Source of the DNA: Marsupella aquatica
Taxonomy: Eukaryota > Plantae > Marchantiophyta
Assembly (NCBI GenBank): GCA_973895155.1
Contig: OZ316894.1
Coordinates: 25,852,709-25,916,708 of the forward strand
DNA: 64,000 bases
Reading direction: 5' to 3'
The notes under the pieces were generated by a model. That model was not told the origin of the DNA and made no database searches. It saw only the letters and a program-made list of their open reading frames with translations. Position 1 is the stretch's first letter. Every line of letters begins with the position of its first letter. Shown here one piece after another: positions 21,701 through 60,300 of this stretch. The translations under genes were made by a program, and so were the position numbers.

Positions 21701-21748
21701 TTTTCCTTTCTTTGTTGGAGTGATCCGGGGTAGTCATTTCTTTTCTCC

Positions 21749-23369: not shown

Positions 23370-27214
<3,845 letters not shown>

Positions 27215-28366: not shown

Positions 28367-28710
28367 TGTTGAGCATAGACGACATTCGTAACGGCAAGCC
28401 CATGAACCATCCAACGCACAATAGTCGACACAAATAGATACGTGATTCACCTCCACATGAGGCTACGTCCACGGGAACACACAAGAGCTTTACTGCACTC
28501 TAGGCCGACCGGCCATACCAAGCATCCACAACACAAGCTCTCCCTATCTCTCAACTAGCTCCGTAACAATGAGCCTAAGTTTCACCTGGGTCTGGCATCA
28601 GCCCTAGCTATATGCATAACAGCACTACCGCTAACATTAGCTAAGTCCTAACCCGAGTTAACCTAACTGTAGTTAGCTCATGAGTCACAAGACTAGAGCA
28701 GTATCTAACA
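28367..28710 (-). mobile_element. Solo LTR (344 bp, Copia family related to the 46715 element), TSD TTACA
   Basis: TG...CA termini, flanked by ttaca at 28362-28366 and 28711-28715. The reverse complement shares the block gtgttcccgtggacgtagcctca...gtcgactattgtgcgttggatggttcatgggcttgccgtt with the 46715 LTR. Confidence 0.9.
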
Positions 28711-29338
28711 TTACAGACCCGACCCAACCCTTATTCTTCAAATTATTCTTACTCTGCTCTTCTGATTAGAGAAGTAGAATCCTTCATAATTGAATGTGGA
28801 ATATTTCATTCAGTTGAGCTAACTGATGAAATGGATTGAGTCGGGTAGTAAGCTGTCAGCCCTTTCTTGGTCCCCACATTAGCTGTTATTGCTTCTACAC
28901 CTGCTTGCATGGTCACCCCAATCACTAAGTGCAGGTCACCATGAAAGGAATGTACTCACCGCACTGACTTGAGGGGACTCAAGTGCAACCAGCTGAAGTT
29001 TCAAAAACTTTGACAGAGCTTAACCTGGACGGAACTTAGATCCAATCGTGAAGAAACATGTGGCACAGTTACTGTTAACCCAAGTAAGCGAAGAGCAAAA
29101 GTGTAGCATATTTGCAAATACGAGAAAAGTAGTGACAATATTAAACTTATCCTTAAACCTCATCCACCGTTCATAGCCACTTCTATTACATTCCTCCAAC
29201 AAATTTTGAGACTTGTGCTATCCGTAAACCATCATAAAGACAACCAAATTTACTGCACGTGGTTAACCGCATCCACAGACAAGTCCACAGGGAAACACTT
29301 GTACGAGCTCCTCTTCATGAATATTCTCATGTTCATTG

Positions 29339-30023
29339 TGTTAGGGTTAACTTTAGTCTTGCTTCTAGTTATCTATGTTGAGCAAAGACGACATTCGCAA
29401 CGGCAAGCCCATGAACCATCCAACGCACAATAGTCGACACAAAGAGATACGTGGTTCACCTCCACATGAGGCTACGTCCACGGGAACACACAAGAACTTT
29501 ACTGCACTCTAGGCCGACCGGCCATACCAAGCATCCACAGCACAAGCTCTCCCTATCTCTCAACTAGCTCCGTAACAATGAGCCTAAGTTCCACCAGGGT
29601 CTGGCATCAGCCCTGGCTATATACACAACAACACTACCGCTAACATTAGCTAAGTCCTAACCCGAGTTAGACTAACTGTGGTTAGCTCATCAGTCACAAG
29701 ACTAGAGCAATATCTAACAATCTAGACTAAACCATCATTAGAGTGTTGATGATGATTAGTCTCGACTCTTGCATATTGCATATAGAGAGGCTAGGGAGAA
29801 CTCTTCTTGGAAGCTCATGCTCATTGTTGAAGGGGCTAGCTAGGTGCTAGGAGAAAATCTCTACAAGAAATTTTTGTGTGACCATGGTGGCCAAAACTTA
29901 GTAAAGCTCTTGTGTGTTCTTGTGAATGTAACCTCGGTGCAAATGAATTATTTATCTCTTGGTGTTAGTGTGTGCATGTTTGCTTATTGTTCTCATGGTT
30001 GTGTGGTGCCAGATTACCCAACA
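29339..30023 (+). mobile_element. Older degenerate LTR interrupted by the solo LTR at 29376-29719
   Basis: tgttaggg start, ...cccaaca end, and an internal block agtaaagctcttgtgtgttcttgtgaatgtaacctc resembling this LTR family. No clean TSD. Confidence 0.5.
29376..29719 (-). mobile_element. Solo LTR (344 bp, same subfamily as 28367-28710), TSD ATCTA
   Basis: TG...CA termini, flanked by atcta at 29371-29375 and 29720-29724. Highly similar to 28367-28710. Confidence 0.9.
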
Positions 30024-34389: not shown

Positions 34390-36780
34390 TGTTAGACATT
34401 TACTTTTGGGTCTAGGGTTACAACTTACTACAACCGTAGTTAGGGCTACCCCCTGGGCTACCCTTTGTCACGGACTTGGTTAGGTTAGTCATGTTGCACA
34501 CTATATTCAAAGCGATGTTTGTTTGGGTAGAAGAAACCCTGGGAGAAACTAGGCTTATTGTTACAAAGCCAATTGAGAGATGAGGAGAACTTGTATTTTT
34601 AAGTAAACCAAAGGCTCAAACTAGACAACAAATGCGGAACATGAGAGCACACGAGGGAGCACACTCAATCAAACGTACACCAACGAGACACGACAAAAAG
34701 AGAAACTTCTGAAGAATCCATAGCATATGAGAGTACATGTGAAGAATGAGGGAGAGATCTTCTTTCTCCAACCTATACCCCGTAGGGGAGGCCGAGATGT
34801 GTGGGCCTAAACTAAACAGATCTTATCATAATGTAATCAAGGGTTAATTAACCCTAGTAAGGCCAAACTAGCTAAAGACGGGAACTCAAGAAAATTCCTA
34901 ACAATATTGTAGAGACTTGATAATGATGGTCGACAAGCCTAGAGTGCGATAAAGCTCTCATGTGTTTCCATGGATGTAGCCTCCACTGAGGTGAACTGTG
35001 TATCTCTCAATGTTGACTACTTGTTCGTTGGATGATCATGGGTTTGCCATCATCTTTGCTCAACAATTGGTATCAGACCATGTTGGAGAGATGACAAAAT
35101 TTTTCCGTGATGGTTTTACTGGAGTTTTGTGGGCATGAAACTTAGAGGTTATGATTGGGCTCAGCAAATAGATTGGTGCAAGGGCTTTCTAACGGTGTTT
35201 AGAAATCACCAGTTAGAGTCTGTGGTGCAAAGGAATCAAAGTATTTATCAATTAATATATTTTTGTGGAGGTTCATAAATTTCATTATTTTTATGGTTTG
35301 TTAAAAGAGTGACCAAAGTTTGTTTTATTGATGGTGTGAACTTTGCGGCGCACGAGACATTGCATGGTATAGCTCAATTTGTAGATCAGGACGAGCGGAA
35401 CAGTTTGGTACCAACTTTGCTTGTACTTGCAAATTGAGTGAGACAAGATGAGAATAAGACACGTTCTGAGTTTTGGCAAGCTATGGTGTTAGGTCTTGCC
35501 TAAGCCTAGCTAAACAACATCACATTTGACTCAAGTGGAGAATCAAAACTTGTTCTGGCTCAATGAAAAGATTGTGATGCGACGATCATTTTGAGTCGGG
35601 GTTGGCTCCTGATGTAGAGGGAGGAAAGCTTAGCAAACTCAACTACCTTATTGGACTTAGTGACACTGAGTGTAATTCACCAACATTTGTTTTTGAGAAG
35701 GTACCCATTTTCTCTCTGAAAAATTAACTTTGAAAATGGCTATGGCAATTTAAGAAGAAATTGTCATCTTGCACAATTTTTTTCTTCCTTGTTCCTTCCT
35801 TGTTTTGGGTGCTTCTCGATCAATCTTCATGACCTCAAAGTCTTGTTTTTTAATCTGAAATCAGATCCTCAGTTTGTGAAAACTTGAGTGAAATATTTTG
35901 ATTATGGTGATGGGGGTGCATTTTGCAATGTGTATTTTCTGCGCAGGCGACCAGAGTTCAACGACAAAGGGTCAAGGGGGTTGGTAGGGGCTTGGGGGGC
36001 TCTAGGTTATAGAAACCCCTTGGTTTCTCTTCCAAAATCCCCACAGGGCCTGTACAAGGGTTGCAAAATATTTGAAAAAATTACATAGCTCTTGTTTATC
36101 CGTCCATTAGAGATTTTGTCTGGAAAACGGTAAATGTTTTTGTTTGTCTTTGTCAAGGTGGTAGCCACCATAGTTGGCAACCCGGTGCACCAATCATATT
36201 GTGTTTTCAATGTTAGTTTCTAATTTGGATTTTGGTTATTCCTTGAGATGGTCATCACGAAAGAGAATATTGCAAATTTAACTCACCCCGACTAAAAAAG
36301 TGAATAAGTTTTTTGTCAGAAATTTTCAATTATGATTTTGGTTTTCAGGGTTGGATAGCTAAGCTCATGGGCTACGCGACAGTGATTAGTCTTGACTTTT
36401 TGAGAAATTGAGGGAAAACATCATTTTCTTAATTTCTCACATGAGTGCTTTGGAGGAGGTTTCATTGTCAGGCGAGTCACTAGAGCAGTTTAACGTGGAA
36501 GAGGAAGAGCTAGCAAAACTGTGCTCACCGGTACTAGAACTAGTGGCAAGAAGAAGGATGAGGACGATCAAGCTTGACGGTCCCAAGTTTGAGGTTACAA
36601 AATATGATGGTCACACATACTACTTATTGTGGGAGTGACAGATGCAAGGGGTACTCAGTGCAACCAAGCTTGGTAAGCTGACATTAATCATGATAGGCAA
36701 GGCATGTATGAGTAGGCTGCGAGCACCGTGATGCTCTATTTACAGTCAAATGTCATGTAGGATTGATAGACGCCATACCT
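34390..36780 (+). mobile_element. Truncated old Ty1/Copia element (5' LTR ~34390-35065, PBS, leader, gag fragment)
   Basis: tgttaga...ctcaaca followed by the PBS tggtatcaga at ~35068. The gag remnant RRRMRTIKLDGPKFEVTKYDGHTYYLLWE* is homologous to KKKMGTFKLGGPKYEVTKYDGRSDYLLWEK of the 46715 element. Confidence 0.8.
34598..34903 (-). mobile_element. Probable solo LTR of another family nested inside the 34390 LTR
   Basis: A ~306-bp block interrupts the LTR homology, ends in cctaaca (reverse complement TGTTAGG), and has an imperfect 5-bp TSD gtatt/atatt. Confidence 0.5.
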
Positions 36781-39700
36781 GAATTGGCTTTTGAGTTCTT
36801 GTAAAGCCAATTGCAACCAGTCCCACTCATTATATGGTACAGATGTAATCTCAAAGGGAATAAATAAAAGCCATAGGGCCCCTACTTCTTGTAAAGGCAC
36901 CCTTAAAAGACTATTGTGTCCTTAGAGAGCTAATTAGGAGGTTGTGAGTGGGTGGTGGCAAGTGGGAGTATGCTAAGGGCCCTAGGCCCCTAGCGTTATT
37001 AATAACGAGCCGGACGTGCGAATTGCCAAAGGGTGCTTTATATCCAAACTCTGACTAATATTTATAATAGGGTTATAACCAACAAGGGTGCCTTTTATGT
37101 GCCGCACACCTTATAACTAGTGCAGGGTAATGAAAATACAGGGTCAATTTAATTCGCTTGAAGGGGGGTTATAATTCTAAGGCCACGCGTCATTACATCA
37201 TTGGTCCACGTGGCTTGCCCTGATTGGAGCTTGTGTAAGTGGCACTAGTCCTACCTAGAACTAAGGATTTTGGAATTTTTTTGGTTTGGGGGATAGTTTG
37301 AAGGGAAGGGTTATGGGCAGGGTTTGGGTTGGGAATGGCATATTACGAGACCCTACCCCGTCGCCAAGTTTTCTATGGGGCCTTTTTTCCTAGGATTATT
37401 TGGGAGCTGATCACCTGGCTAATCGATTGGTAGTGAGCGGGGTAGTGAGGGCCCAAGTGAGGGTTCCCTTTAGGGCATTTGGGCAGACATAGGGAGCCAC
37501 CACGAATTCCATCGACAGAAGGTTGAGGGAAGTTGGAAGCTTGCAGCTATGCGATGCCGCATTTGAGCTGGTGAGCTATGGAGGCCTGAATGAAATGTCG
37601 TGGTGGAGGTCGTCAATGGGTATTGAATCTCCGTAGGGTTCCCTCTGGCAAGGTAACAAGCAACTTTTGGGACAAAGGCAAGCTTCATTGAGGACGAGAT
37701 CAAGGAATACACTGGCGGGACTAGGTTGACGCCCGGGTTGACAACTCACACTTCACTTTCTGCAAGCTTTACTGAAGGTTTGACTCTGCCTGACACTTTC
37801 CATTGTTTAGGCAAATGCTTTCCACGTATGTGCATACACTTTCCATTGTTGAGGCATACACTTTACTAGCTATGGAATGTCCCGAGCTGCAACTGCCGTC
37901 CATCTGCCCCGCCATCTACAGTAGGCCTAGGCTAGGGCGCGACCTTCGTGTTGGTGTCAACATTGGGGAGGTGTTGCAGTCTGCGGGAAGGCAGAGTCCG
38001 TGGCTGAGTCGTTGCCAAAGGTGTTGTGGAGGTGCTACCGGTGGAGGTGTTGCTGCAAACCCGACCGCTAAGGTCCTTTGTGCAGGAAGCCCGGGGGGAA
38101 GCCTAGACATTGCACAGAGGTTTGGGCCCCATTAAATCCTCCCATTCACTGTTTCTCTCTACGCACAATGCATTTGAACTATAATGGTATGCATTCCACT
38201 ACTGTATTGTTCTTGAGAAAGAAGGCTGAAATTGTGGTTGAAATGTGGCTTATGCTGCTTGCGGAAGGTGCCATTGTTCTTGTGGGAGGTACTCCTCTGT
38301 GTCAGGCTTTGTGCGAGAAGGGCGGCTATAAGTTGAGCTGCGGGAGTGTTGTTGGACTACAAGCGGGGCTGCGGGAGTGCTGCTACTGCGCTAAGGAAAC
38401 CTGTTGATGTAGTCTAGTGGGCGCCAAAGCTGTTGCTGGTGTCCAAGGAGTTTGCTTCCCGTTGCTGCTACCTGAGGGGAGCACTATTGCTGGAGGGAAC
38501 CGGCTGCAAGGTATCTTCCTTTCAATTCTTTTGACCACGCTGCTTTTGGTAGTGTACACAATCCTGTATATTCAAAGAAACTGTTACTTTCGCATTGTGG
38601 GCATTGAATTTTGTGTGTTCCCTCTCTATCTCCTTGAAAAAGTGCGATGGGACACGGATACGAACAGAAATAGATTATTGTGTGTCGCGGAAGCAGGCCG
38701 ACGCTTGTGCTCTGTCAGCAAATTTTTTGAGTAGAGAGCAAGGAGATTTGTTCACATTTGAGTGTAATTGTTACATCATTGCCAGCCGTGAGGCTCTGTT
38801 CCATTGTTTTTTCCGTTGGTTCTTGGATTGTCTCATGACAGTTGTTCATTTTGTGCTGCCCCCATTGTTTTGTTGCTTGTAGCAGCGACTGTGTTTATGG
38901 GCTCTCTTATTTTGGGGTTTGTGGAGATGTGGTTATTGTCTTCACTCCGGGAGCCAATCATCTTTTAAAGATTGGGTATATCTTTCAAAGATATCCGTTT
39001 TCCATCCAAACTCCATTGCGAATGCCAAACAGCATTAAGAAGGTATAACGCCCGGCCACCACATTTGTTTCAGATGTCAATGTGTCATTTGTTTTAGAAG
39101 TCAATGAATTGATGTTTCCATCATTTGCTGTCTGTGCAGATGTTTGCGGATGAATGTGCAGACATGGGCTTTTGTACAATTTGAAATCCCTGAGGGTCTA
39201 GTTCTCAATATAATCCAGGTTGAGTTTCTGATGGCATCAATCAGCCCCTATCTCACTTGTCTTGTATATTTGTTTGCGATAATACCTCAATAATCTGTAG
39301 GTTGAAAACATTGTTGTTGTATAAAATAGAAGCCTTGATGGTTGCTGGAGTTGTGTTTAATTTGAAAGAAGCCTACCACAATTAAGACCGTTACTAACTA
39401 GGTGTCCTATTACAGTTGTACAGGCCAGTTTTGCATCATTCAACCTCCACTCTGAAAGTTGAAGATCGACGACCTACAAGGCCACCAGATCGAAGGTTGA
39501 CATATTTTTTCCAGTAGTTGATGCGGGTGCTGGTTTTCCCAATTTTGAAACAATTTGGCTCATTTAGGCATGTTGTTATTGACCTCGGCAGAATTGAAGT
39601 ATGGAGTTGTTTTCTTGACTTTCATTGACATACATTTACCTCATTTGGCCTGCTGTATTTTTCCCAGAAATGCCCCGGAGGTGCAGCCAGTTAGGAGCAA

Positions 39701-41149
39701 ACTTGGAAGGCAAAGCGGAACGATTGTTCCACAAGCTTGTGTTGAAGAGGTTGGTTCCTGCCAATTGCGCTGTTGTCTGGGAATATCCGCCTGTACGGAG
39801 GGACATGTATAGTCGGCTTGTTTCTGCCTAGTATTGTCCTAGTTGTGAATGGTGTCATGCAACCAGAGGACATTCTGTACTCTGGATGTATCCACAGTTG
39901 CGAGCTCTTATGTCCAAGCTGTAGGGTGCGTCCGGGAGATATTTTTACTCAGGCTGGCCAAAAGCAAGTCTAGAGGTGGGCAGCCTGTGTAACGTGGAAC
40001 CACGATCAGCTCATCTTAGGGCCGGGAGTTCACACTGTTTGCCCTAGAGTAGAGGATCACTTAGTGGAGCATCTGCAATATCGACTGTGACTGGATTGGG
40101 ATTATGTGTTTGACTATGATGTGTGCCTCGAATTATAGAGTTCTCCTTGAACTCATTTGTGTTGTCATTTACCCACAGATTGGGCAACCTGTGAGTTTAG
40201 GAAGAGTTCACATCATCAAGTGCTACCTTCCACTACCACAAGGTATGGAGTGAATTTCAAATTATAGTTCTGTCATTCCATACTAGAATGTACAATGTTT
40301 GCACAGACACTAACTGACAGGGATTGTGTGTTGCTCAGGTAAGTTAGCAGGTTTTCATTTTACATGTCTTTTTCGCATTTTCCTTTTTCGCATTTCCTTT
40401 TTCGCTATTGTAAGTGTTGGTTTGCAGGTTCCTCAAGTTCATTGGGACCTCAGGGAACTAATGCCCCTGAAGGAGACTTGCTGGAAGTGATGACCCAGCA
40501 GTCTAGCGCCCTTGAATGAGAGAGCAGGTTGCTTGGGAGGGGGAGGGGCCTTGGAGTTGGTCACCAATGGCATTCCTGATTAGAGCCCAAAGTGTTAGGG
40601 TTTGGTTGGTCCGGGATTGTCAAGGAATCCAAATTCTTGGGGCACTTAGGGTCGATAGGGACTGAGTCCAAGTCCACTGTGTTCGAGTGGAGGGAATTGG
40701 AGTGTGGGAAACCCGATTGAACATGCTAAGCACACATGAGCATGTTACAGATCCCAATCCCTCTAGTGCTTACATTGACATTGGAATCCTTGTCAGCCCT
40801 AAACCCTAAACCCTTGCCCTTCCCACCCGAGATGTCTCGGAGAAAAATGACTTGGATCTGTAGAAGCCAATCACCAAGAGCAATGGTCGGGATGGGGCAA
40901 GGCTCTCTTGGGGGTTGGTCCAATGGATGTGGTCTCCCAAGCAGTGGGCTGTTGTAGGTGTTTTGTACTAGGGTATTTGATTGGGGAGGTCACAATATAG
41001 ATTTAATAACTCATTGCCTTCTGCTTGGTTTTAACAGGCGATGTTGGAGATTTATCCATACATGAGGTGGATATTACCCGAGCCTGATTATGGCAGAGGG
41101 GATCTTCTGTTACAGTTGAAGAGGTTGAATATTCTTCAGAGTAATAATC

Positions 41150-41803
41150 ATGCATATTGCAGGGCTGCTCTGCAAAGAATATTACTTGAACGTGCACCAT
41201 TTCTTTGTGAATCAAGGTGATAGAATGATTTACATCAGATGGGACAAATATGTCAAGTACAATAGAAATGTTATATTTCTCCTCATCAAATCCGGTGCAG
41301 TGAAGACCTTCATTCTTCACTCTTGTCATGTGGTGAAGGGGCTTCTATTGTATGAAACAAACTTCTACAAGGAAAATAGAAAGGAATATTTTGATGAAAT
41401 CCAGGACGTCATTGATGGTCTGGAAAATCCTCTGGCCACAGAGTTTTTGGTTGATGTAGGTGGGAAACTGTATCCCTACCGAAATAGACAACTCCCTCCT
41501 CGACCTCTCTGTACATATTTGCCTACGGTAAATGTATGTGGTCTACTGACTGGTAAAATGGCCGATGGAAGTTTCTATGAATGTTGCATGTTAGCCTGTT
41601 GTGATATTCCATCACGCAGGGTTTCAGTGGTAGTGGTTAATCCTGAGATGAACCAAGTGGAATTCCATTGGTTGTGGGCTTATCCCCACACCGTGAAGAC
41701 TATTCCACATTGGCCAAAATTAAATGTTTGGAGAGAACAACCACATTGGGGAGGTTGGGGTAGTGATAGTGATGAGGAGACTGATAGACATAGGCAATTT
41801 TGA
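41150..41803 (+). CDS. Orphan 217-aa ORF carried inside the DNA transposon, function unknown
   Basis: ATG-initiated, uninterrupted ORF with globular-protein-like composition, on the same strand and ~260 bp upstream of the transposase ATG. No family recognised. Confidence 0.5.
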   Translation: MHIAGLLCKEYYLNVHHFFVNQGDRMIYIRWDKYVKYNRNVIFLLIKSGAVKTFILHSCHVVKGLLLYETNFYKENRKEYFDEIQDVIDGLENPLATEFLVDVGGKLYPYRNRQLPPRPLCTYLPTVNVCGLLTGKMADGSFYECCMLACCDIPSRRVSVVVVNPEMNQVEFHWLWAYPHTVKTIPHWPKLNVWREQPHWGGWGSDSDEETDRHRQF

Positions 41804-44800
41804 ATCTCAATATTCAATTTTGAAGAGTTAGTGCACCACCCGGCTCATTTTTTGTAATTCTATTGTATATACTATCAATCTGAAAATTTTGAGATAGTTT
41901 TTGCAATCTCAAGAAATGGTTTGTAATGTTTACAGACTTCTATATAAGAATGGTGGTTCTTTTGGTAGTGTTGATTGTGTAATTGACATGTGTATATTGT
42001 GGGGAAATGCTTGAATGTGACATGTCCATTGTATTGCTTGCAGGTCTGAATCTGTGATTTTTTCATGCCGCCTATGCCTGTATTTCTCGTTGACCATGAG
42101 TCAGGGACCAGAAAACACTCTGGGACCATCAGTTGTCTCCCTGGATGGACCTTGGCGGATGCTAGGCAGAAAATGGTGGATTTGGAACTTTGGGACTTTG
42201 ATTTTGATTTTATTGATAGCGTGGGAGGTTGTAGATTGCGTGCTGCTTGGGAAAAAGGCAACCTCATTGATGATTGTGATGGAAAGATTGTCATCATCCC
42301 CAAAATACAGTCTCTGCCCATCCAGAAAGTGGGGGTTGATGTTGGAAGCAGCAATGCCTCCAATGCTGAGGCTATGAGTAAGAGTGTTAGTGACGGAGAG
42401 TGGCACACTGAAGTTAGGGTAGAGCCTGAGATACAGTGGGGACAACAGGACTTGCCTCTGCCTGTTTCACCCCCAACTTCACCTCTCCCTAATGTACCTG
42501 TGGATGATGATCCACATGTGAGTTTCCAGTCAACAACTATGTCAAATGATCTGGCCAAGCTCTGGGTGTCCAGTGTTGACAAGTTGAAGGAGCACATGGT
42601 CTTCATAAAGTGTGAGGACCACAAGTGGAGCGTCAAAACTTGGGACAGTGGTGGTGTTCCATGTGGTAAGATAGAGTGTTGCGAGTGCAACACTAATATA
42701 TCTGGATCATCTAAGTATGTTATGGATAGGGTGTCTATCACTAATTGTTTCACAAATTTCAAACAGAAGCATTTGATCACCCCAAAGCATGCCAAAAATG
42801 TGGCACATAATAGGGGGCAGAGAGTAGACTCTGTTGAGATCAGTCGAAGGGTTGCAACTTCCTCCTTGAACGATTGTGCAACTCTTGACATGCATGTTCA
42901 GATAGTTGAAAGGCTCAATGAATCTGAGCCTGTGTCCAAACCTACCTTCTACATTGTAGGTGATGTTCAGAAGGAGCTTGTGGAGAAGTTAGAGCGGTTC
43001 AGAGTGGGGTGCCATTTTTGCTCTGACATGTTCACTTTGGTACCCAAGCAACGTAATCTGGAGGTTAATCTGAAATCCCATTGCATCTCTGCAAATCATC
43101 TATCAGCAGTTGCTAGGAGTTTGAAGCCACCACCTGGTGCACCAATACTGTCAGGAAGGTCAGGCAGACCTCCTAAGGATGATAAGAGGGATGTTCGCCA
43201 AAGAACCATTAATGGGTTCTTAACCCGGCAGGCCAGAGATATTGCTTCCAGCAGCCGGTCAGGAGGGACAGCTGGAGGGAGTGGTTCAGGAGGGAGTGGT
43301 TACAGTGGAGGTTCAGGCCATTCAAGGGATGTGATAGGAGATCCAGGTAAACCCCACCCTTGGTCATTGTTGTGTTGGGGATTGTGGCGGAACTCAGTTC
43401 AATATGGTGCAGTAATCAGGCCTATCAAGGATATCCTATTAGTCAGCCAAAGGTTGACGGAGCATGGTATGCAGAGTCAGGGGTAAAGGCAGAGGTGTGG
43501 TGTCTTCTAGGCCAAGGATCTTGTTTGATAGAAGGACTGTTCAGGCACGTGAACTGTAGTAGAGCATCACGGCTTCTTGGTGGTTTTCAAGATCTGACTT
43601 GTGAAGAATGTTACAGTATTGCAAGGATGGGTGACTTCCGATTAAGAGCCTTTAGAGAGGACATTGCAGTAGAGAAAAGAGGTACTCGAGGAACCGGTAA
43701 GGGTAGACGGTTGGCATATCTCACAATTCCTGAGATTCAAGAACAAGCCAAAACTTACAAGAGAAACATTTTGTCTCTCAGAAAACGTCTCAGAGCTCAG
43801 CAACACCGCCTATGCATGTTGGGGGCCCGAGTCCCCACTTTGAGAGATCTTTGCAAAGAGTCTGGAAGTAGGAAAGACTTGTACAAGTTTTGCAATGACA
43901 TAGTCTTGGCTCACCAGCGTGGTGCATTTGGTGGGAGAGAGGCCCTATGGGACTTGTTGCGAGATGTAGCTGCAAATCTTAATAGGAAGAAAGAAGGAAA
44001 CACCTTTCGACCTGACACTAAACTTCTTTCCCAGATATTGTTCCACCACGGTGGCAGGCGTGTGGTGGATTGCTTGCAAAGTAATGCATTAGGCCCTAGT
44101 CTGAACACCCTTCAACGGGACAGGAGAGCCATGGTTGTATTTAGGCCTGGTTTGCATGCTGACCAGTTCAAGTTTGTTGCTGTTGTATACTCTCAACTAA
44201 AGCAGAGGATGGGGATCACAAGTCCCGTGCCATGCTATTTGGCAGAAGATGAGACCTGTCTTAAGCGGACAGTCAGGTGATTTCATTCCCCTGACAACAT
44301 CCTATAGTCTGTAGTAAATTTTTGTCTGTTATCCCTCTCCTCAATAGGTCTGTGGCTGACCACTACTGTGGATGGCTGTGTTGCAGATGGCAACCAAAAC
44401 ATGACACATTATTGGGGTTTTGTGGGTTGAAAGAGGATCACGAGTGTGTGGTTGGCTTGACAATAAAGGTTGGAGCAGGAGAGGAGGGTTTCAGCAAAAT
44501 CACTGATACCTTTGAGAATTACAAAATTGGAAACCAGGCCAGATGTATAGTAGTAAATCCTCTTGCAGAAAGATTTCCTAAATTTTGCATGGTCGCCATG
44601 AGTACATGCGGTAAGTTTATTGCAGATTTTGTCAATCAGCAATGGAAGTCCACAGACACTTTGTGGGCTAAATATTGTCTAGACTCAGTTGGTCCTCTCT
44701 TGGGTCATGCTAGTGATGGAGATGCACAAAGGAGGAAGCTGATGCTAGAAGACTACACGTACTGGTCAAAGCTCATATCAAGGGCAAAGACAGAATCTGA

Positions 44801-46714
44801 GATGGGAAGGTTGGCTATTGAGCCACTCATTCACTACCAATGGACGTCATACACATGCTGTTGGGTTACATGATCAGGATTACATTCATAATGGAAAGAA
44901 GTTAATAAACCCACTTGATTCCTGCGGCCAGAACTTTGAAGCTGGGAACAGAGGTGGTTGGAATCAGTAACTTGGACACTCTCCAACGTTTATATAGCAA
45001 CTTGGATCATGGGTTGAACAAAGGTGATGTTAAACGAAATGATAGACAGAATTGGGCCAGTGCACAACGATTATGTAGTAGAAAAGTTGTGAAGGCACTA
45101 AGAATGCTTCGTGAAAGGAAAGATGCAAGAGTTGAGCGAACTCTGGGGATTGAGATGTATCTCACAATATGTGGTGATTACTTGGATATCTTTATGAATC
45201 CTTGTCTCACCTTGAGAGAGCGGGTTGTGCTATGTGCCAAAGTTAGTTTCTTTCTTCGCCTTTGGCGATTATGGTGTTTTCATGGAAATCATAGTGTTGG
45301 AGGTAACACGACAACAATCAATTTTACTGTGAGCTGTGTCCCTATGCAGACATTTCTTGATATTCACATGTCTGTGCACTTTGTGGTACTTCTAATTATC
45401 CAATTCAGGGATAATTTCAGACATTTGCCAAATGTGCCATTGCATTTGACAGGATCTGATGCATGTGAATAGTTTTTCTCCAAAGTAGGAGGAATGAAAG
45501 GGAATGAGCGTAGTTATGATTTTTCTGAGTTGATTGACTGTGCAACATCATTGAATAGGTTGGCTGCAATGGATCTCAGCAAAGGGATCAGAGGGGCTGG
45601 AAAAAGTCACAAGAAGCATTGCAATATTTGGATGAAATTGCATCCGATACCGATACAAGTTGGTACTTCTGTTAATCCTGTAGACTACACAGGTATTGAA
45701 ACCAATGAGGAAGTTGTGATAGCCCTGAAAGAAGGGTTACTTTTAGCCCAGACTGTAGGAATCGAGTTGCAGATGAATCCATCTACATCTTGTAGGGATA
45801 AAGTATGGTGGGAATCACCTTGGATTACTGAAAAAAGGGGTCCAAGTTTGGAGGATGGTGTGATGTTAAGGTGGAGGATCTTGCACCTGTTGATAGTGAT
45901 GATGAAGAATTAGGCGGGGAGATCAGGCAAATTGCAGCTAATGTAACCATCCCTACACTTCCAACTGATATTGCAATGGCAGAAGGTAGTGAGATCAGTG
46001 AAGATAGTGAAAGGCCAAGCATTGCAATAATAGGAGATCATTGTTCAACTGTTATGTCTGAAATGCATTCAGACTTGTTGTATGGACAACCTGTTCTTGA
46101 CATCAGACCAATTGTGAGTTTTGATGGTCGGAGCATATACAAGAGCAGATTGGTAAGCCAACTAGTTGGTAACCCCAATGTAAGTAAAGATCGTTTGACT
46201 AGAGTGAAACATAGCTTGTACTTCAACAATTTAGTTGATGCACCCAAAGATTGAGCAGGAGCAGTCACCATGTTCATGACTATGGGTAGTGATTGTGGAG
46301 TTCTCTTTGCTGATACAACAGTACAGACTCGGGCCACAAGAGCCACTGAGGCTATTCAAAAAGCCATGAAAGGGAAAAGAGCAAGGAAAGAATGTGGGAC
46401 AACAAACGGATCTTCTGCTCCCAATCCAAAAAAGCCAAGGGGAGAACCTGTGAAAGTTACCATAGTACCTGATACCCTTAAGTACACTTGGTGGATAGGG
46501 AGGGTACAATGCATCCAACAAAAATATCAGGGTCGGGTGATGGGTAGAACAAGACAATCAGTGGATTTACTTGATAGGCCTGGCAATGAAGAAGTTGTAA
46601 GAGTTCGTTTTGAATGGTTTTCAAGGATTGGAAATAGTAAGCACAAATTTGCTTACAATGTTTGTGATCCTCAGTGGATCGATTTGGATTGTGTGATATC
46701 AAACGTGACACTAT

Positions 46715-47135
46715 TGTTGGGTATTTACTCTTACGTCTAGGTTAGGTATGACGTGGTTGGTACAACAACGTGGGTTGGTACAACTACGTGGTTAGGTACA
46801 ACTACGTGATTAAGTACAACTATGTGGTTAGGTACAACTATGTGGTTAGGTACAACTATGTGGTTAGGTACAACTAAGTTGCACACTATATCATAAGAGG
46901 CATGTGTGCTTGGAGAGGTAGAACCAAGGCTCATTGTTATGGAGCCACTTGAGAGATAGGGAGAGCTTACACTGTGGAGACTCGGTATAGTCGACGGGCT
47001 TAAAGTTCAGTAAAGCTCTCTTGTGTGTTCCCGTGGACGTAGCCTCAAGGAGGTGAACCACGTATCTCTTGTGTCGACTATTGTGCGTTGGATGGTTCAT
47101 GGGCTTGCCGTTGCGATCGTCGTCTATGCTCGACA
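46715..47135 (+). repeat. 5' LTR, containing an 18-bp tandem array (gtggttaggtacaacta(c/t) x ~7)
   Basis: Direct repeat of 52024-52444; array at ~46752-46876. Confidence 0.95.
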
Positions 47136-47558
47136 ATTGGTATCAGAGCATGCTTGGGAGATGACGTGTGTTCGTGACGGGATTTCATGACAGTTTTTCC
47201 AGCGTTGAGTGTCGGTGGATTTCCCAGAGTTCCGTCACATGGAACTTGGAGTTTATGGGCTCAACGGATAGATCAGGGCAAGAGCTTTCTAACGGTGTGA
47301 AGAAATTGATGAACGGAGCTCGTGGTGCAGAGAGATCTAAGTTTTCATCGTTCTGGATTTTGTGAAGAAAGTTGGCAATCGACTCAGAGGGAGAACCGTC
47401 AAGTGTTTTGACTCAACGGAGAGATTGAGGCAAGACGATTGTTTTGAGTCCGGGATTGGCTCTTTGATGCAAAGAGGAAGGCTAAGCAAAATCAATTACC
47501 TTGTTGGACTTGGTGACGGCACCAAGTGCAATTGATCAACATTCGTTGTTGACAAGAC

Positions 47559-50500
47559 GTGGAACTTGAAGCACGAGGATCATCGCGGAGGTTTCAGGGG
47601 CAGAGAGAGGAGCAGGAGGAAGAGCACGTGACACCGATACCATCACCGGTGCGGCGTGTGGTGGAGGAAGCAGTACTACTACCGGAGCTCACGGTAGTGC
47701 CAAAGAAGAAGATGGGGACTTTCAAGCTTGGGGGACCCAAGTATGAAGTGACAAAGTATGATGGGCGCTCTGACTACTTGCTATGGGAGAAGCAGGTGAA
47801 GGGAGTGCTATATGCGTCAGGGATGGGCCAATTGCTGAGCCCTCGTGAAGACGATGTTGATGAGAAACAATGGGACCGCATGCAGGAGCAGGGAGTGTGG
47901 TGTGTTACACTCTATCTCATGCCTCCCATCATCAAGCAGTTGGGTGCACATAAGGATTGTATGTCCTTGTTTGCGGAATTGCAGAGCAAGTATCACCGCA
48001 AGGAGTTGTCAAACCGGCTCTACACTTCCTACAAACTGATGAGTTTCAAGATGAAAGAATCCGGTACGAAGTTGCAAGACCATGTGGATGCTTTCAACGA
48101 CATGGTCGTTGACTTGGAAAACCTTGGGGAGACTTTGAATGATGAGACGAAGGCTCTGCAGCTTCTTAGTTCATTGCCTCCATCTTACCAATCCCTATCA
48201 CGAGTGTTGTTGCATCGTGATACGGATACCATTTCATACAATGACGTGGTAAGTTCTCTGCTTAGTGATGATCTTCAGCAGAAGATGCACATCACGTCAC
48301 AGCCTTCATCATCTGGTGCTGCCCTCAATGTTAACCGTGGGAGGAGTATGTAGCGACCAACTGGGGACCGTAGAACCCAGTTTAGATCTAAATCCAGATC
48401 TAAGTCCAAGGGTAAATCCCCTCAGAGGAGGCAGGTGACATGTTGGAAGTGCAACCAAGTTGGACACTTCAAGCGAGACTATAAGGGAAAGGCAGTGGAA
48501 ACTTCATCGGCAAATATGGCTAGGGCTGATGGAGAAGCTGATTTACTCAATGATGAGTATGTTCTATGAAGCCGGGGGTATGCCCTGTGCACGTCATCTA
48601 GGAGAGCAGATGATATGTGGATTCTTGATTGTGCTTGCTCTTTTCATATTTGTAACATTCGTGAGTTTTTCAGTTCTTACTCTGTTTCAAACGGTTCAGT
48701 TCTGATGGGAAATGATCACTCCTGTCAAATTGAGGGAATTGGGTCTGTGAAGATTCAAATGTTTGATGGCGCTGTGCGCACAGTGTCCAGAGTCAGGTAT
48801 GTACCTGGCATGCGTAAGAATCTGATTTCACTCGGTGTGTTGGATTCAAATGGTCATCAATGGTGCGTTATTGATGGTGAACTTCAAGTCAGGTCGGGAG
48901 AGACAGTGATTTTGAAGGGGAGTAGACAAAAAAAAATGTATGCGTTACAGGGCAATACTGTATGTGGAGAGGCCAATGTAACCAAGTCTCACGAGGAGAT
49001 GACTCAACTGTGGCATTTACGGCTAGGTCACATGAGTGAGAAGGGTTTGGCTATCTTACAGAAGAATGGACTCATTTCTGATTTGCAATCTTATAAATTA
49101 GAGTTTTGTGAGCATTGCATTCTTGGAAAGCAGCATCGTCGTGCTTTTGGTGTTGGAACTCATCGTTCCAAAGCGGTTCTTGAGTACATACATAGTGACG
49201 TGTGGGGTCCATCCCCGACTCCCTCACACTCTGGAAAGTTATACTATGTATCATTTATTGATGATTACTCAAGATTTGTGTGAATTTATTTCATGACGCA
49301 TAAGTCTGATGTCTTATCCATTTTTAAGAAGTGGAAGGCCTAGGTGGAGAATCAGACTGGAAACACGATCAAGTGTTTGGATACAAGGGTGAAGAGTCTG
49401 AGGTCAGACAATGGCGGGGAGTACACTTCAATGGAATTTGAAGAGTACTATTCAGAACAAGGGATAACTCGCCATCTCACCACAGTTTATACTCCACAGC
49501 AGAATGGTGTCGCTGAGAGGCTCAATCGAACACTGTTGGAGCGGTCACGGAGTATGTTGAGCCAATCAGGTTTACCACAAGAATTTTGGGCAGAAGCTGT
49601 CAATACCGCAGCTTATTTGGTAAATCTTTCTCCTTCTAGTGCTATCAATTTCAAAACGCCGTTTGAGATGCGCTATAAGCGGTAAGCAGACTATCATGGC
49701 TTGGTAGTTTTTGGAAGTGATGCATATGCTCTCACACCGAAGCAGAATAGGACCAAGTTGGATCCTACCTCCAAGAAATGTATTTTTCTTGGGTACCAGA
49801 GTGGTGTGAAAGCCTATAGGCTATGGGATCCTATTGCCTGTAAGCTCGTTGTCAGTAGGGATGTTTCCTTCAATGAATCCAGATTATTGAAAGAGGGGGA
49901 GAATACTCAGGTCTCCCGTACTGACAAAGGAAAATCTCCTATCCCGGATCTCGTTGAGGGGGAGATTGGTTATGAGGTGCATGACCGGAGAGAAGGAGTT
50001 GCTCCAATTATGGAGCTGGTTCCTGTGCCAGAGGAACCAGAGGAGTTTGTTGATGCTGGTGAGCAGCAAGTGGATGTTGTTGAGCTTCAAATTGTACCAG
50101 CACACGCAGATCAACCGGAGTCATCGGCTATAAGAACATCTGGTCGCACTGTACGCGCTCCACCAAGGTATGGACAGTGGGTTGATTCATCTCAACTGCA
50201 AGAGGATGATTTTACAGCTGATGATGAGGGTGATGCGTTAATTTTGGAAGAAGGGGAACCTTCTTCATTTCATGAGGCAAGTGCTTCAAAGGAGAAGCAG
50301 AAGTGGACTGCAGCAATCCAAACGGAGATCCAATCACTAAAGGACAACAAAACTTGGGAGCTTGTTAAGCTGCCTAAGGGTCAGCAAGTGGTGGACAACA
50401 AGTGGATTTACAAGCTGAAGGATAATTCCATAGGAGGTGGATCGAAGGTCTACAAGGCTAGGTTGGTAGCAAAGGGATTCACACAAGAGAAAGGTGTGGA

Positions 50501-51834
50501 TTACAATGAGGTCTTCTTACCAGTTGCTAAGTACTCTACAATACGACTATTGTGTGTACTTGTTGTAATGTTTGGTCTGCTGCTAGATCAGATGGATGTT
50601 GTCACAGCTTTCCTCTATGGCACATTGGAAGAGGTGATCTTCATGAGACAACCGCTAGGTTTTGTGAAGAGAGGACAGGAGGAATTGGTTTGCAGATTGC
50701 TGAAATCCTTGTATGGGTTGAAGCAGTCACCAAGACAGTGGAACAAGCGGTTTGACGATTGGATTCGATCACAAGGTTTTCACAGAAGTCTATTTGACCC
50801 TTGTGTGTATTTGAAACCGGTAAAGAATATTATCTTTGGGTTCATTGTTTTAGTACTATGATATGCTAATTGCAGCCAAGGATAGGTCTGAGATTGTTAA
50901 GCTCAAGGCACTGCTTAGTGCAGAGTTTAAGATGAAGGACTTAGGGCCAGCTAAGAGGATTTTGGGTATGGAGATCACTAGGGACTTGGAGGCTGGCAAG
51001 CTATGGTTGACGCAGAGCAGTTATGCGAGGAAGGTAATTGCAAGGTTCAACATGGGGAATAGCAAGCCAGTAAGTACCCCGTTGGCTCCACACTTCAAGT
51101 TATCATCAGCGTTCTGTCCTACGAATGACACAGAGAAGGGGTTGATGTCAAAGGTTCCGTATGACAAGGCAGTGGGGAGTCTCATGTATTTGATGACTTG
51201 CACTAGACCTGATCTTGCCATGGCTATGGGCAAGGTGAGCAGGTACATGTCGAATCCAGGGAAGGTACACTAGGAAGCAGTGAAGTGGATTATCAGGTAC
51301 TTGAAGGGTACCGTGGATCATGGTCTTTTATTTGATGCGAATGCAAAGAATGCTAAATCATTGATTGACTATGTTGATTCTGACTATGGACAAGATTTGG
51401 ACCGAAGGAGATGAACAACAGGATACGTGTTCACACTTGGCGGTGGATGCATAAGTTGGAGGTCTACTTTGCAGAAGTGTATTGCTCAGTCTACTACAGA
51501 AGCGGAGTATGTTGCAGTTGCGGAAGCATCCAAGGAAGCGATTTGGTTGGATAGACTTATCACTGAAATGGGATTGCCACAGGGGAATGTGAAGCTCCAT
51601 TGTGATAGTCAAAATGCGCTCCACCTTGCTATGAACCAGGTGATGGACAGCAGAGTGAAGCACATTGACGTCAGGTACCATTTTATCAGGCAGGCTGTGT
51701 TTGATAATTTGTTTGAGCTAGTCAAGATTGATGGTAAACTCAACCCGGCTGACGCATTTACCAAAGTGATTCCTTTGGAGAGTTTCTCTAGACACCGTGA
51801 CGTATTGCAGGTTTTGCAATTGCATCACAAGTAG
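47559..51834 (+). pseudogene. Copia gag-pol polyprotein pseudogene
   Basis: UBN2-like gag, knuckle CWKCNQVGHFKRDY, protease WILDCACSFH, GAG-pre-integrase LWHLRLGH, integrase HSDVWGP/RSDNGGEY/QNGVAER, RT KARLVAKG/QMDVVTAFL/LYGLKQSPRQW, RNase H STTEAEY/KHIDVRYHF. About 7 in-frame stops and one frameshift. Confidence 0.95.
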
Positions 51835-52023
51835 AGTTTTCTTAACATTCATTGTAATTACTGATATATGCTATTCCTCATTCCTATATATTAGGCTACA
51901 GCTTAGTTCTGGTTTGCTCTAGTTAGAGAGGGAAACCGGTTTGGTTTTTGTCCAGAACTTCCCGCTGAGGGATCATATACATTGGCAGTATTACTCTCCC
52001 TAGACCAGAGTCAAGGGGAAGAT

Positions 52024-52444
52024 TGTTGGGTATTTACTCTTACGTCTAGGTTAGGTATGACGTGGTTGGTACAACAACGTGGGTTGGTACAACTACGTGG
52101 TTAGGTACAACTACGTGATTAGGTACAACTATGTGGTTAGGTACAACTACGTGATTAGGTACAACTATGTGGTTAGGTACAACTAAGTTGCACACTATAT
52201 CATAAGAGGCATGTGTGCTTGGAGAGGTAGAACCAAGGCTCATTGTTATGGAGCCACTTGAGAGATAGAGAGAGCTTACACTGTGGAGACTCGGTATAGT
52301 CGACGGGCTTAGAGTTTAGTAAAGCTCTCTTGTGTGTTCCCGTGGACGTAGCCTCAAGGAGGTGAACCACGTATCTCTTGTGTCGACTATTGTGCGTTGG
52401 ATGGTTCATGGGCTTGCCGTTGCGATCGTCGTCTATGCTCGACA
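52024..52444 (+). repeat. 3' LTR
   Basis: Direct repeat of 46715-47135. Confidence 0.95.
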
Positions 52445-53699
52445 ACTATCAGTGAACCCCACAACTCCAAATGTTTTTCATTTGCATCCCGCTGATGCAA
52501 ATTTGCTGGATGATTTTGCTAAAGCCCATAAGTGATTGGTATAACAAAGGGGTAAATGGTGATATTCTGAGAATTCAGCCATGCAAGGAGACAAGATTTT
52601 TTCTAAGGCAAGTGCTTAAGATCCTGTTTGCTTTTGTGAACAATTTGATATTCCATTTGATATGACACAGTAAAATATCTGCTCATTAGGCTTACATACT
52701 ACTCCATATAGTAGTTTAATTTGGACAAATCCTTACTGTTTTTGATGTAATTTTTTTTGATTGTGTCCTCGGGATCTTTTGAAGATGGAAGGCAAGAGGA
52801 GGACATATAAATTCCCTAGTGTTCTCTTAGTTCAGATAGGAGTTCTGTATGCACTAAACTTACATGTGTGCCTGGCCTCTTAGTTGAGAACTTCTGCAAA
52901 CACTCTTACATGTTTACAGCAAAATGTTTTCTAGAAATAGTGCTTTTATAAGATTATTAGAACATAGTTGTATAAGTACTTTTACATATACGCCCTTATA
53001 GACAATAGGTAGATTTGTAAGCACTGTTGCATGTGCTAAATCATAGTGAAGCACTCATACATGTCCTAGAACATAGTGAGACACCGTTAAAGTTAAAACA
53101 CTATTATATGTGCTAGAACATAGGGAGACACTCTTATATGACATGCCAAAATTGAGTCTTCTTCTCCATTCCAACACTATTTTTTATATAGATACCTAAT
53201 TTTCTATGGTATACCTTTAATGAGTTTTGTATATATTTTCAATATTTTTCAAAATTTATAATATTTTAAGACCTTTTTTAATGTGATTAATGGTACATTT
53301 ATAATTTTTGCAAGGGGCAAATAAATTCTCTAAGATTAAGTTTTTAAGAATAACAAGAGGTATATCTATTGGTGTCCAAAAATAATAAGGGGTATATGAT
53401 AAGGGGCTGTACGCACGTATACCCCTTACCAATACAAAGACTGGGGCCCCAGGGGCTAAGGGTTGGCCGGTAGATGGATTAGCAATATTATATCATTTTT
53501 AGCTCTAGTTTGTTTATCAAGGGCAGTCAATTTTTAGTCATTTGAAAACTCAGTTATTGAAATTTGTAAATCACAGTTTCTTGAAAGTTGGCTTTCAAAA
53601 TCCATTATTGTGGCCCACGCCAATGTTATCTTGACTCATTTTAGTGGGTTAAAAAAGATTTTTTTTCTAATGGCACTTAGCTCATTGCTTATTTACTAC

Positions 53700-56644: not shown

Positions 56645-57312
56645 TCAATAGATGCAGTTGGGTTTCGGCGCCATGGCACAAGAGTTTCTGTAGAGTTTTA
56701 ATAACTACAGTTACGGGAAGGGAGTGGAACTGGATTGCCTACAGATGGGCACTAACCAGATCCAGAGTGGAGTTCAAATGTCTGATGCGGTTTACGGTCC
56801 TGTACCTGAAGACGAAGAAGTCGAGCGAAGCAAATTCAAGTAACGAAAGGCAGATTTCGCCCCCAGAGAAAATCAAAGCAATCACTGCCAATTTCCTGCA
56901 CAATCACTCGAAAGAATGTCACTTCAGATGTGATATCTGGCACGTTACCTTCCCTCTTAATCACTTCCAAAATTTCTACCGGTTGCTGCTCCACAAATCA
57001 CAAGTCGCATGGGTTTGTGGGTCGTCATGGTACTTTAGCTGGAGAGCTCTGGAGAGAGGGAATTGTCTCAGGAATCACGGCCCCGAGTTGAAGACGAAGA
57101 CGAAAAAGACTGAATGGATCATTTTTTGAGGTCAAGCATCTCTGTTTCAACAAACTTGGGGGTACTTGACCTCTGGGTACTTCAATCTTTGAGGCTGGCA
57201 GACCACTATTTCTACAAGGGCTCTGGACAGATAAGAAGGGAAAAGATGGTTAGCTTGTAGGCAGGTCACGAAAACGAGGAGCCAGGCCTTCTTTTGTGGA
57301 CGGACGGATGCA

Positions 57313-60300
57313 ATGCAATGTATTGCTCTGCGGGCTCAAATGCCCTTCTTGTACGACCATCGTCTCTCTCACGCAGCAACTGCAGCTAGAGAATCATCAG
57401 CTGGGGAAGTTGATGTTTCGAGTGAACTGACCGGCGGAAATTTCAGTAATTCCGCGCTGTTGACGTTGCTGCGATACAGCAACGGAGCCCGCAGTTACTT
57501 GAATCAGAGTTTGGGGATCCGGATCATTAAACCCTGCTGCTCTCGTCTTTGTGCAGTGAACCCCAGAAGTAGGAAAGAGTGGCTTCTCCTCCACAACTTG
57601 CCTGATGCTCGTGATCAGGGGGCCCCCAACGTGAAGGAAAAGAAGGCGGAGACCGAGTTTCACCACGATGTCGTCCCAGCGAAGACGCTGCAGACTGACA
57701 AAGGTGCGAAATAAGCAGATTGACAAGAATGTGTGGAAAACAAATACCATTTTTATGACGCTCGCTCGAATTTTCGTGTGTAGGGTTTTTGGTATAGACG
57801 AAGGCAATGCCTTTTATAATTGCGTGGACTGTATCCGTAATATTCAAATTTGCTCTGGAAACTCCCTTCATAAGGGTTTGGACTGACGAAGGTATTCTCT
57901 TACATTTTTGTGCGGGGTACATTTACGGATGTCAAAATTTTGACTGGAATCTTTCGTTGTAGGATTCTAGGTAGTGTGGTTAATGAGTCATCCTGTGCTC
58001 ATGTGATTTTACCAGAGGTTACGGAAAAGACAGTGGCGGGAAGAGGGGATTCCAGACCGGAGAGCTTTATTGAGTTCAGGAATAGCAGTCCACATTCTGC
58101 AATCAAGACCAAAAATCAAATTGAGAATGGAAAGTTCAGAGTGCCCACTTCAGGGGAACCTGAGATGCAGACAAAAAGGGTTGCCTCCCCTGAGATACCT
58201 CACCTAGGAAGAGAAATGTGGAATGGGAGCCCGGTGGATAGTGCGTATCAACCACGGGTTTCTCATATTCTCCCTCGTAAGGATGGCGATTCCGAAACTG
58301 TAGAGTTTTGGGGGAGGAAGCAGAGAAAGGAGAGCATGCCAGTGGAAGGAACCGAGACCGGAGCTAACCTGAAATCCTCCGACGAAACTCTTGCAATGAC
58401 GAAGAGATGCAAAAACGTGACCCATGTGGAAAGGTATAAAACTCGTGTTCTTCAAAACCGAATAGATGGCGACTCTGCTGCGACATCCAGGGAGGGCAAG
58501 AACATGGAGGGGTTCAGTCCTTGGGTGGCACCTCAGAAACGACAGACTCTGGAGACACCTGACGAAACTCGTGCAACGAGAGACTTATGGAACAATAGGC
58601 CTGTTCAGCGTCAGGACCCTGCAGATATTCAGATTGGAGCTCGCGCTCAGCCCTTACAGAAGAGGCAGAACAATCCAGAGTTTACTTTTGAGGGGAAAGA
58701 CAGCTTTCAATCCTCTGCTGTGAGAGAAGCATCAAGTGGCAACTTGTTGGTGAACAACGAGAGCATCCAGGTGGTAGAGAGCACCGCAGGGGCTACAGAA
58801 AAGATAAGTCGGAGGCCTAAATCCTCTCGGGGGGCTGGGGAAGGGACTCAACCACCTGGTCGTAAATCCCTCTACCAACAGGGAGGTGATTCCGAGGTTA
58901 GAAAGGAAGAGATGAGCGCAAAAGAGGAAGAAGAGGTTCCAGGATTGTTATCTGGAAAGCGAGAGATGGTTGATCACAATGGGGAGAAAGTGGTGGAGGT
59001 GTGGAAGAAGGGCAGGGTTGTGAAAAGATATAAGCCTCTTGGCATTGAATTTCTTTATGGAAGGACGAAGCCCACTCGATTATTTGGACCACTAAACTCA
59101 AGGGGTGAAGTTCCGGGTACTGATTTGGCACCCGTTCCCAGGATGTATCGAGACAGGTGCGAGAATGGCCAGGGGTGGAGTATTAGAGAAGTGGTGGCCA
59201 AGGTTTTGGAACTAAATCACTGGGACGATGTTGACTTAATTCTTAACCAGTGGGTGGGACGCTTCAATCGAAGGAATTTCCCTCCTCTCATGCTGGTATG
59301 AAAATTCTCCTGTCAACGATAACCTCGTCCAGATTTCGGGAGTTTAATCAGGTGCAGAGGCACATCGCCAGTCTGGTACATAAATAAGTAGTTTTAACAT
59401 GAAAGTCAAGGAAAGGTCTAGAAGGTCCGTTACTCGTAGAATATGAAAATGGCAGAGTTTGGAAGACAAAAAGTACCTTGATATTTGCTTGTACATAATA
59501 ATTTCTTGAGTTATCAAAAATTTGTTCCAGCGTAAACATCAAACCTTTTTCATCTGGTGCTTGGGCGGAACATATTAACTTTGCGCACTGAAATTTTGCG
59601 TGGCTTACCAACCTTGTAACTTAAAGTATATTGTATAACACAGAGAGTCACCAACTGCAGGCAATGACAAGGACTGGAGCCCTCAAACACAGTGCACGAT
59701 TGTTTACCTGGATGAAGGCTCAGCGCTGTTATAGGGCTCGGACTGATATCTACAATCATATGATCTGGCTCTATTCAAGACACTATCGAGTTGACGCAGC
59801 ACGTGCATTGTTTACGGAGATGCAAGAATGGAGGTCGGTTTTCTGTGAAATTTTAAAAATTGATGAAAATTGGACTGAATGCTTAAGAAAATGTGTGCTG
59901 CTGTAAAGAAACGATGGGTTTGAAGTCTAAGATGAGCTAGAACCTCCTATGAAGCCATGTCCTTTTTGTTGTCTGGATTTCTGCTTTTGCGATGTTTTAG
60001 AAGCTTTGCCCGGTCTTGTATGGAAGCCATGTTTTGGCATTAGTAGCTCCACCTTAGTGCGGCTTTATTTTCGAATTAAGTCTTGGTCCTTAAATGGCAG
60101 GTTTTAAGTGATAGTACTTCTTTTACACATGAAGGGAAACGTTAATTTTCATGAGCAAGGACGACTTCTGGCAGTCCTAGTTAAAGATACAAAGTTTGTC
60201 AAAACAGGTGCAAGCCAGATGTTGAAACTTACAATGCACTCATCAATGTGCATGGCCGAGCACGGCAGTGGCGTGAAGCTCTACTTTTCTACGATAGAAT

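Follow-up and report, generated by a model that had tools for sequence, protein, structure and literature searches.

Introduction

The P element of Drosophila melanogaster (PDB 6p5a and 6pe2) makes an 8-bp target-site duplication (TSD), has a terminal C:G pair, and encodes a 751-residue transposase with a coiled helix, a helix-turn-helix (HTH) and an RNase H fold that is split by a helical insertion domain and carries DDE and D(2)H motifs (PMC7776569, in its available text). The same text describes guanosine triphosphate (GTP) hydrogen-bonding the terminal G of the transferred strand in the Drosophila complex, gives GTP-assisted transposition as known only from P, and reports the THAP domain absent from plants, fungi and bacteria (PMC7776569). 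Galileo, 1360/Hoppel and THAP9 share the DDE and D(2)H signature, with TSDs in the 7-9 bp range, and THAP is reported as animal-restricted, in the parts available of PMC3698922 and PMC10824691. We describe here an element at positions 36980-53454 of the window, by which we mean the whole 64,000-nucleotide stretch analyzed from the liverwort Marsupella aquatica (contig OZ316894.1, positions 25,852,709 to 25,916,708, forward strand). We consider it very probable that this is a dead, multi-copy DNA transposon with an 8-bp TSD, and we predict that its transposase belongs to the P superfamily as a deep-branching member that lacks THAP and likely acts by cut-and-paste.

The liverwort family resembles the Drosophila P element in its TSD length and terminal C:G pair, and in the predicted architecture and catalytic motifs of its transposase. 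It differs in lacking THAP and having two C2H2-like fingers, in the size of the protein (~1,500 residues against 751, with long extra N- and C-terminal domains), in ends of the form C-Y-C with terminal inverted repeats (TIRs) of 14-26 bp, probably in its GTP contacts (3 of 8 tentatively kept), and in an element length of 6-11 kb. With Galileo, 1360 and THAP9 it shares the catalytic signature, a TSD within their range and, likely, partner non-autonomous copies comparable to BuT5, but it has plant hosts and no sequence-level Pfam match.

Fungal P elements have been scored with Pfam P domains in Pucciniales and Allomyces, in the available text of PMC5751038. The occurrence of P outside animals is not new, since non-animal P elements exist. 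Repbase holds green-algal P families, and Ginger of lycophytes, with an unrelated type of transposase, is a TIR superfamily found in non-seed plants and seldom in flowering ones. Sola of mosses and lycophytes offers a precedent of the same kind, a TIR superfamily that non-seed plants have retained and that few flowering plants have, again with an unrelated transposase (PMC10741241, available sections). The same sections of that 2023 review count seven plant TIR superfamilies, P not among them. A 2025 survey covering 1,007 plant genomes used Pfam at E < 1e-5 to look for 17 superfamilies, P among them, and, in its available text, reports seven, with none for P (PMC12973397); its scope is recently active elements of 2-12 kb, with non-vascular plants making up 5.7% of species. 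The term 'P element' does not occur in the available parts of PMC7466625, PMC9985172 and PMC10294476, and open papers gave no report of land-plant P elements, although supplementary repeat tables, Repbase or Dfam could list the family.

Results

Ends, target duplication and empty site

A sequence-only reading of the window had proposed a complete transposon here, with an 8-bp duplication adjoining imperfect 14-bp inverted ends, and that arrangement stands: GCTAAGGG lies on both sides (36972-36979 and 53455-53462, no strand assigned), and the left TIR CCCTAGGCCCCTAG (36980-36993, + strand) matches the right TIR, with its end CCCTGGGGCCCCAG (53441-53454, - strand), at 11 of 14 positions. The element measures 10,740 bp once a nested 5.7-kb Copia is subtracted, close to the ~10.7 kb first estimated, and element plus duplication come to 16,483 bp, the 8-bp length of the duplication being taken from the empty-site contigs described below. 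As for completeness, the ends are intact but the gene is dead, with four frameshifts and two stops.

On its own the pattern of TSD and TIR is weak evidence, with one or more pairs of this kind arising in 21 of 200 first-order simulations (flanks of ~10 and 9.5 kb), and a chance pattern around a decayed host gene or domesticated gene has to be considered for that reason. Public contigs were aligned to both ends, using the four best (X1-X4) of six runs containing the stretch; these represent two organisms and two studies, and the best run may be the window's own sample. Other copies do stop at the same base at the right end: in 4/4 runs contigs track the element to 53454 and then diverge into other sequence, with at least three, at least one, at least four and at least two contigs leaving there per run. 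The flanks beyond 53454 differ among these sister copies, because the contigs agree with their consensus at only 0.51-0.6 where several were pooled. Summed contig depth in X1 falls from ~1,100 inside the right end to 17 outside, and is ~130-200 over the transposase coding region against 16; contig depth is not copy number, and we read from it only that the family is multi-copy, with more ends than genes. Since right ends far outnumber coding regions, the data suggest short non-autonomous copies moved in trans.

A homologous empty site that joins 36979 to 53463 is present in two runs. A 573-nt contig in X3 and a 457-nt contig in X4 each match the left flank to 36979, and the remainder of each matches the right flank from 53458; five letters are common to both flank alignments, so that 36979 falls on 53462 and a single copy of the target is left. 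The contig records were paired across the left and right alignments by length, depth, strand and record coordinates. X4 also contains both filled junctions with zero mismatches. Organism B (X3 and X4) has two loci of comparable depth at 36979/53462, one filled and the other empty and ~11-12% divergent; a hybrid or allopolyploid would show this pattern, and so would a paralogue. The left boundary at 36980 is supported by the empty site and by TIR symmetry, whereas the right boundary is given directly by the sister copies.

The alignments show that the element inserted and duplicated 8 bp of target, that its ends are fixed, that the family has multiple copies and that an empty site exists. A further element independent of the window, L001, is a complete 6,096-bp copy with a perfect 26-bp TIR, an exact 8-bp TSD GTTTTCAT and one 1,498-residue frame. 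Set against the simulated pairs, the common stop at 53454, the drop in X1 depth, the empty site and L001 leave the chance explanation with a negligible probability.

The transposase gene and its lesions

The gene runs on the + strand from the ATG at 42065 to a stop at 52535 and is colinear over its full length with a 1,529-residue protein of the liverwort Calypogeia fissa (P0008), at 42-66% identity. Exon 1 (42065-44276, +; 44-58% identity to P0008) encodes the N-terminal domain, two C2H2-like fingers, the coiled helix, the HTH and the first catalytic Asp (44248), and has a frameshift near 43440. It is followed by a 110-bp GT..AG intron (44277-44386, +), excision of which makes the gene colinear with P0008; an intron at the same position occurs in locus L016 and is absent in the other 28 of 29 testable loci. 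Exon 2 (44387-46714, +; 42-66% identity) encodes the second Asp (44715), the D(2)H motif (44878-44889), the helical insertion domain, the Glu (45467), an acidic linker and the C-terminal domain, and carries frameshifts near 44770, 44930 and 45835 and in-frame stops at 45470 and 46252. The nested Copia entered within the last 30 codons, and the final 28 codons and stop lie past it (52449-52535, +), matching residues 1494-1525 of P0008. The motifs AEDET (44242-44256), ASDG (44709-44720), QDYIHNGKKLI (44875-44907) and SDACE*FFS (45455-45481) are each located where the sequence-only reading had them, and the intron, the four frame changes and the nested Copia that it described were likewise recovered.

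Long stretches of sister contigs are ~1-3% divergent from this copy, and the codon at 45470 is a sense codon in sister contigs of all four runs; the family is therefore young and the 45470 stop private to this copy. The sequence at 36980-53454 is dead, within a family that was active recently. No RNA run was among the listed runs containing the stretch.

The absence of THAP also held up, with no Pfam THAP match and the THAP pattern in 0/15 long family members, and two C2H2-like fingers are present instead. Predicted finger 1 (42677-42790, +) has the pattern C-x2-C..H-x5-H in 14 of 15 long members and predicted finger 2 (43010-43099, +) in 15 of 15, with C317, H340 and H346 of the latter invariant in alignment A6. 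The missing THAP is expected in a plant family, because the available text of PMC7776569 reports the domain as absent outside animals.

The outer domains of the protein are less readily placed. The N-terminal region has no sequence match in the ESM Atlas or PDB, and its Z of ~6 to ribosome hibernation factors is in the common-fold range and was not used. A conserved C-terminal beta domain is of low confidence or absent in both predicted models described below; a BAH/Tudor label for it was set aside, the likeness being by eye only and its profile having no match in PDB or Pfam.

A predicted P-type fold

The proteins folded were two relatives, P0018 and P0011, used in place of the broken protein of the window. 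P0018 is 50% identical to the window core, and its model, built from 102 rows, has a mean predicted local distance difference test (pLDDT) score of 81.9. Against P transposase 6p5a this model (range 134-566) gives Z 25.4 and a root-mean-square deviation of 3.2, with 409 of 442 residues aligned, the insertion domain included. The runners-up among 48,161 chains are integrases (Z 9.0), Hermes (8.6), ISCth4 (8.6), Transib (8.1) and piggyBac (5.6), so a structural search, as had been proposed, prefers P. Foldseek with the same model finds P transposase at E 4.9e-10, with a TM score of 0.72 over the target, and RAG1 as the next family at 4.1e-3. The weaker P0011 model (pLDDT 52.2) ranks 6p5a top too.

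Sequence profiles and family-wide conservation point the same way. A 90-row family profile has 6p5a as its best PDB match (E 0.0023), with an alignment that takes in the coiled helix, the HTH and the first Asp (equivalent to D230); PDB searches with single sequences or with an 18-row profile gave nothing useful. The DDE triad is nearly invariant across the family alignment (D 70/71, D 86/88, E 82/83) and is present in the window copy; the D(2)H motif that follows the second Asp is likewise nearly invariant family-wide (D 86/89, H 89/90, then KK). In the ESM Atlas, the top three matches to the window's own piece carry the P-type GTP-binding insertion domain in 19-67% of members. Together these results uphold the P-like assignment of the transposase first made from its motifs.

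A further alternative is membership of a different known superfamily of cut-and-paste elements whose transposases have an insertion domain (hAT, Mutator, Transib, piggyBac, Kolobok or CMC/Plavaka); 8-bp duplications are also made by hAT and Mutator. However, Hermes, ISCth4, Transib and piggyBac all score far below P in the structural comparison, the motif is D(2)H instead of the C(2)H of hAT and Mutator, and the TSD is not the TTAA that Kolobok duplicates, GCTAAGGG and GTTTTCAT differing between the two elements. Kolobok and CMC are absent among the structural matches, where the fold search could test neither, and we know of no solved structure for either; Pfam also gave no match for Kolobok or CMC-Plavaka. 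Membership of one of these superfamilies is highly improbable.

Termini and GTP contacts

P-superfamily termini conventionally start with CA. All of the ends examined here (8/8) begin CCC or CTC and are G/C-rich, with the first C alone in common with that convention, and so the termini are indeed unlike the usual type, as first described. Further in, the motif CGTGCG lies 36 bp from the left end (37015-37020, +), as a putative transposase contact, and 38 bp from the right end (53412-53417, -). Of eight ends from five elements, seven carry the form (C/G)(G/C)TG(C/A)G at offset 36-38, with a per-end shuffle chance of 0.2-2% for a motif that was defined after viewing the ends; judged from these sequences, it is likely to be a transposase contact.

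Eight GTP-contact residues listed in the available text of the review (PMC7776569) were mapped onto the family. The equivalents of D528, S409 and D444 are kept in the window, tentatively, since the alignment segment scores 1.4 bits, and under the same weak mapping those of K385, K400, V401, F443 and N447 are replaced. Family-wide, and again with this mapping, the D528 equivalent is D in 75 of 84 rows, the S409 equivalent is S in 40 of 90, and the D444 equivalent is D or E in 51 of 88.

These features raise the alternative of a distinct superfamily, sister to P, that has the same fold but neither GTP use nor the long, 17-nt staggered end cut of P. The C-Y-C, G/C-rich termini, the five lost contact equivalents, TIRs of 14-26 bp against the 31 bp of P, and N- and C-terminal domains unlike those of P are all in its favor, as is the size of the family by itself (4,046 clusters at 50% identity). 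However, nearly all of the P transposase residues compared align, insertion domain included; the D528 equivalent is largely kept; one relative exceeds the cut-off of the Pfam P HTH model; and the profile E-value of 0.0023 is under the 0.005 convergence rule of Repbase, although that rule concerns iterated PSI-BLAST (PMC4455052, available text). We regard a sister superfamily as unlikely, and favor a branch within the P superfamily.

Relatives and distribution

Relatives were collected as 61 metagenome loci, of which 30 with flanks were screened for ends. In addition to L001, two loci (L004 and L047) have a single family-type end each, and candidate ends in L013, L032, L034, L040 and L041 were rejected as AT-rich or repeat-array matches. 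Locus L003 has a 174-codon frame with no Pfam match downstream of its transposase and within the element (7003-7527).

A 14-row profile recovers the 4,046 clusters noted above, 592 of them with E < 1e-30. The named hosts among the matches listed are Calypogeia fissa, Riccia sorocarpa, Riccia fluitans and the fern Adiantum nelumboides, and no named seed plant is among them (17 and 120 rows, mostly without an organism name). Three distant members carry extra domains, Tudor in P0239 (E 9.7e-10), SAP in P0252 (6.3e-10) and C1 in P0267 (4.8e-6).

In a FastTree phylogeny of 158 core sequences, from which those with less than 80% core cover were dropped (removing the Adiantum proteins) and which was midpoint-rooted with no P outgroup, the window groups with Calypogeia (support 1.0) and that clade joins a Riccia group (0.89). 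The tree fits vertical descent in liverworts without proving it, and the direction of any transfer is beyond it.

Interior, nested Copia and neighborhood

The 5' interior (37250-39530, no strand assigned) is low-copy, with an X1 summed depth near the single-copy level and no Pfam match in six frames. A 224-codon open frame (41129-41803, +) has no Pfam or PDB match, and contig joints indicate that many sister copies skip ~41017-42030, a segment spanning it. A histone-reader gene was sought in the 5' 5 kb of the element, and neither six-frame Pfam searches that read through stops, nor the PDB, nor the 61 loci yielded one.

The nested Ty1/Copia (46715-52444, +; 5,730 bp) has Pfam matches to gag, integrase-flanking and reverse transcriptase domains, long terminal repeats (LTRs) at 46715-47135 and 52024-52444 that differ at 6/424 positions, a primer-binding site at 47138-47149 and a 5-bp TSD, ACTAT. 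Each LTR contains an 18-bp unit repeated in tandem about seven times (46751-46876 and 52060-52185). Just upstream of the transposon, 36500-36900 is a decayed Copia gag remnant whose translation resembles the gag of the nested Copia, and LTR-like sequences at 28366-29674 and 34490-35210 are 70-86% identical to its LTR.

Farther upstream, 14460-27700 is a giant inverted repeat with arms of ~6 kb and 91-99% complementarity, with a coatomer delta-like gene in each arm (Pfam Adap_comp_sub; the delta-COP label is read from the translation); this palindrome looks like a host-gene duplication or an assembly fold-back. Host genes at 9413-13158 and 57200-61587 are VPS11 and a PPR gene, the first likely exons of the latter being ~4 kb from the right end of the element. 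The window VPS11 is 93% identical to that of Calypogeia, 79% to that of Riccia, and at most 70% to those of named mosses, lycophytes, ferns and seed plants; these values point to a likely leafy-liverwort host and agree with the non-seed-plant setting first proposed.

Discussion

We conclude that the family is a divergent branch of the P superfamily in non-seed land plants. Several observations weigh against this reading and should be set beside those that favor it. The empty locus is ~88-89% identical to the window flanks and is therefore homologous to the filled site without being its direct pre-insertion allele. Both predicted folds are of relatives and not of the window's own protein, and identity to P transposase in the structure alignments is 12-15%. 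The ESM Atlas recognition score is below threshold, and Pfam P models pass their cut-off in 0/7 window pieces and in 1/62 relatives (0/17 and 1/45); the seven window transposase pieces have no Pfam match at all, and the best P match among the relatives has E 6.4e-5, the model that passes being the P HTH. The window copy keeps 3 of the 8 listed GTP-contact residues, tentatively, given the weak alignment segment. Finally, 28 of the 30 screened loci are without a convincing pair of ends, and L003 has family-type 15-bp inverted ends without a matching TSD.

The P model (PMC7776569, available text) suggests how an intact member may transpose, as regards binding, pairing, cutting and joining. The enzyme of ~1,500 residues would bind subterminal sites (CGTGCG at 36-38 bp and AGGGG-type repeats) through the two C2H2-like fingers that replace THAP, and would pair the ends by means of the coiled helix and HTH. 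Two-metal cutting and joining would be carried out by the RNase H DDE site, split by the helical insertion domain, and strand joining 8 bp apart would give the 8-bp duplication. Every end seen starts with C, and therefore the joined 3' base is G, the base contacted by GTP in Drosophila.

The absence of the family from the survey of 1,007 genomes may be explained by weak Pfam detection. No tested member reaches the survey threshold of E < 1e-5, and therefore an entire multi-copy family is likely missing from catalogues of plant transposons; its transposases likely sit in annotations as hypothetical host genes. We give about even chances to a broader proposal, namely that a large uncatalogued P branch has been in land plants since before the split of leafy and complex-thalloid liverworts, is intact in non-seed plants and escapes Pfam, has swapped THAP for two C2H2-like fingers, has gained a C-terminal barrel with a possible role in reading chromatin, and may not need GTP for transposition. 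A distant branch that shares the predicted fold and the terminal G, but in which half of the GTP contacts differ, amounts to a natural experiment on the GTP mechanism. If the assignment is true, intact members would let the universality of the GTP requirement of P be tested directly, and would offer a native transposon tool for bryophytes.

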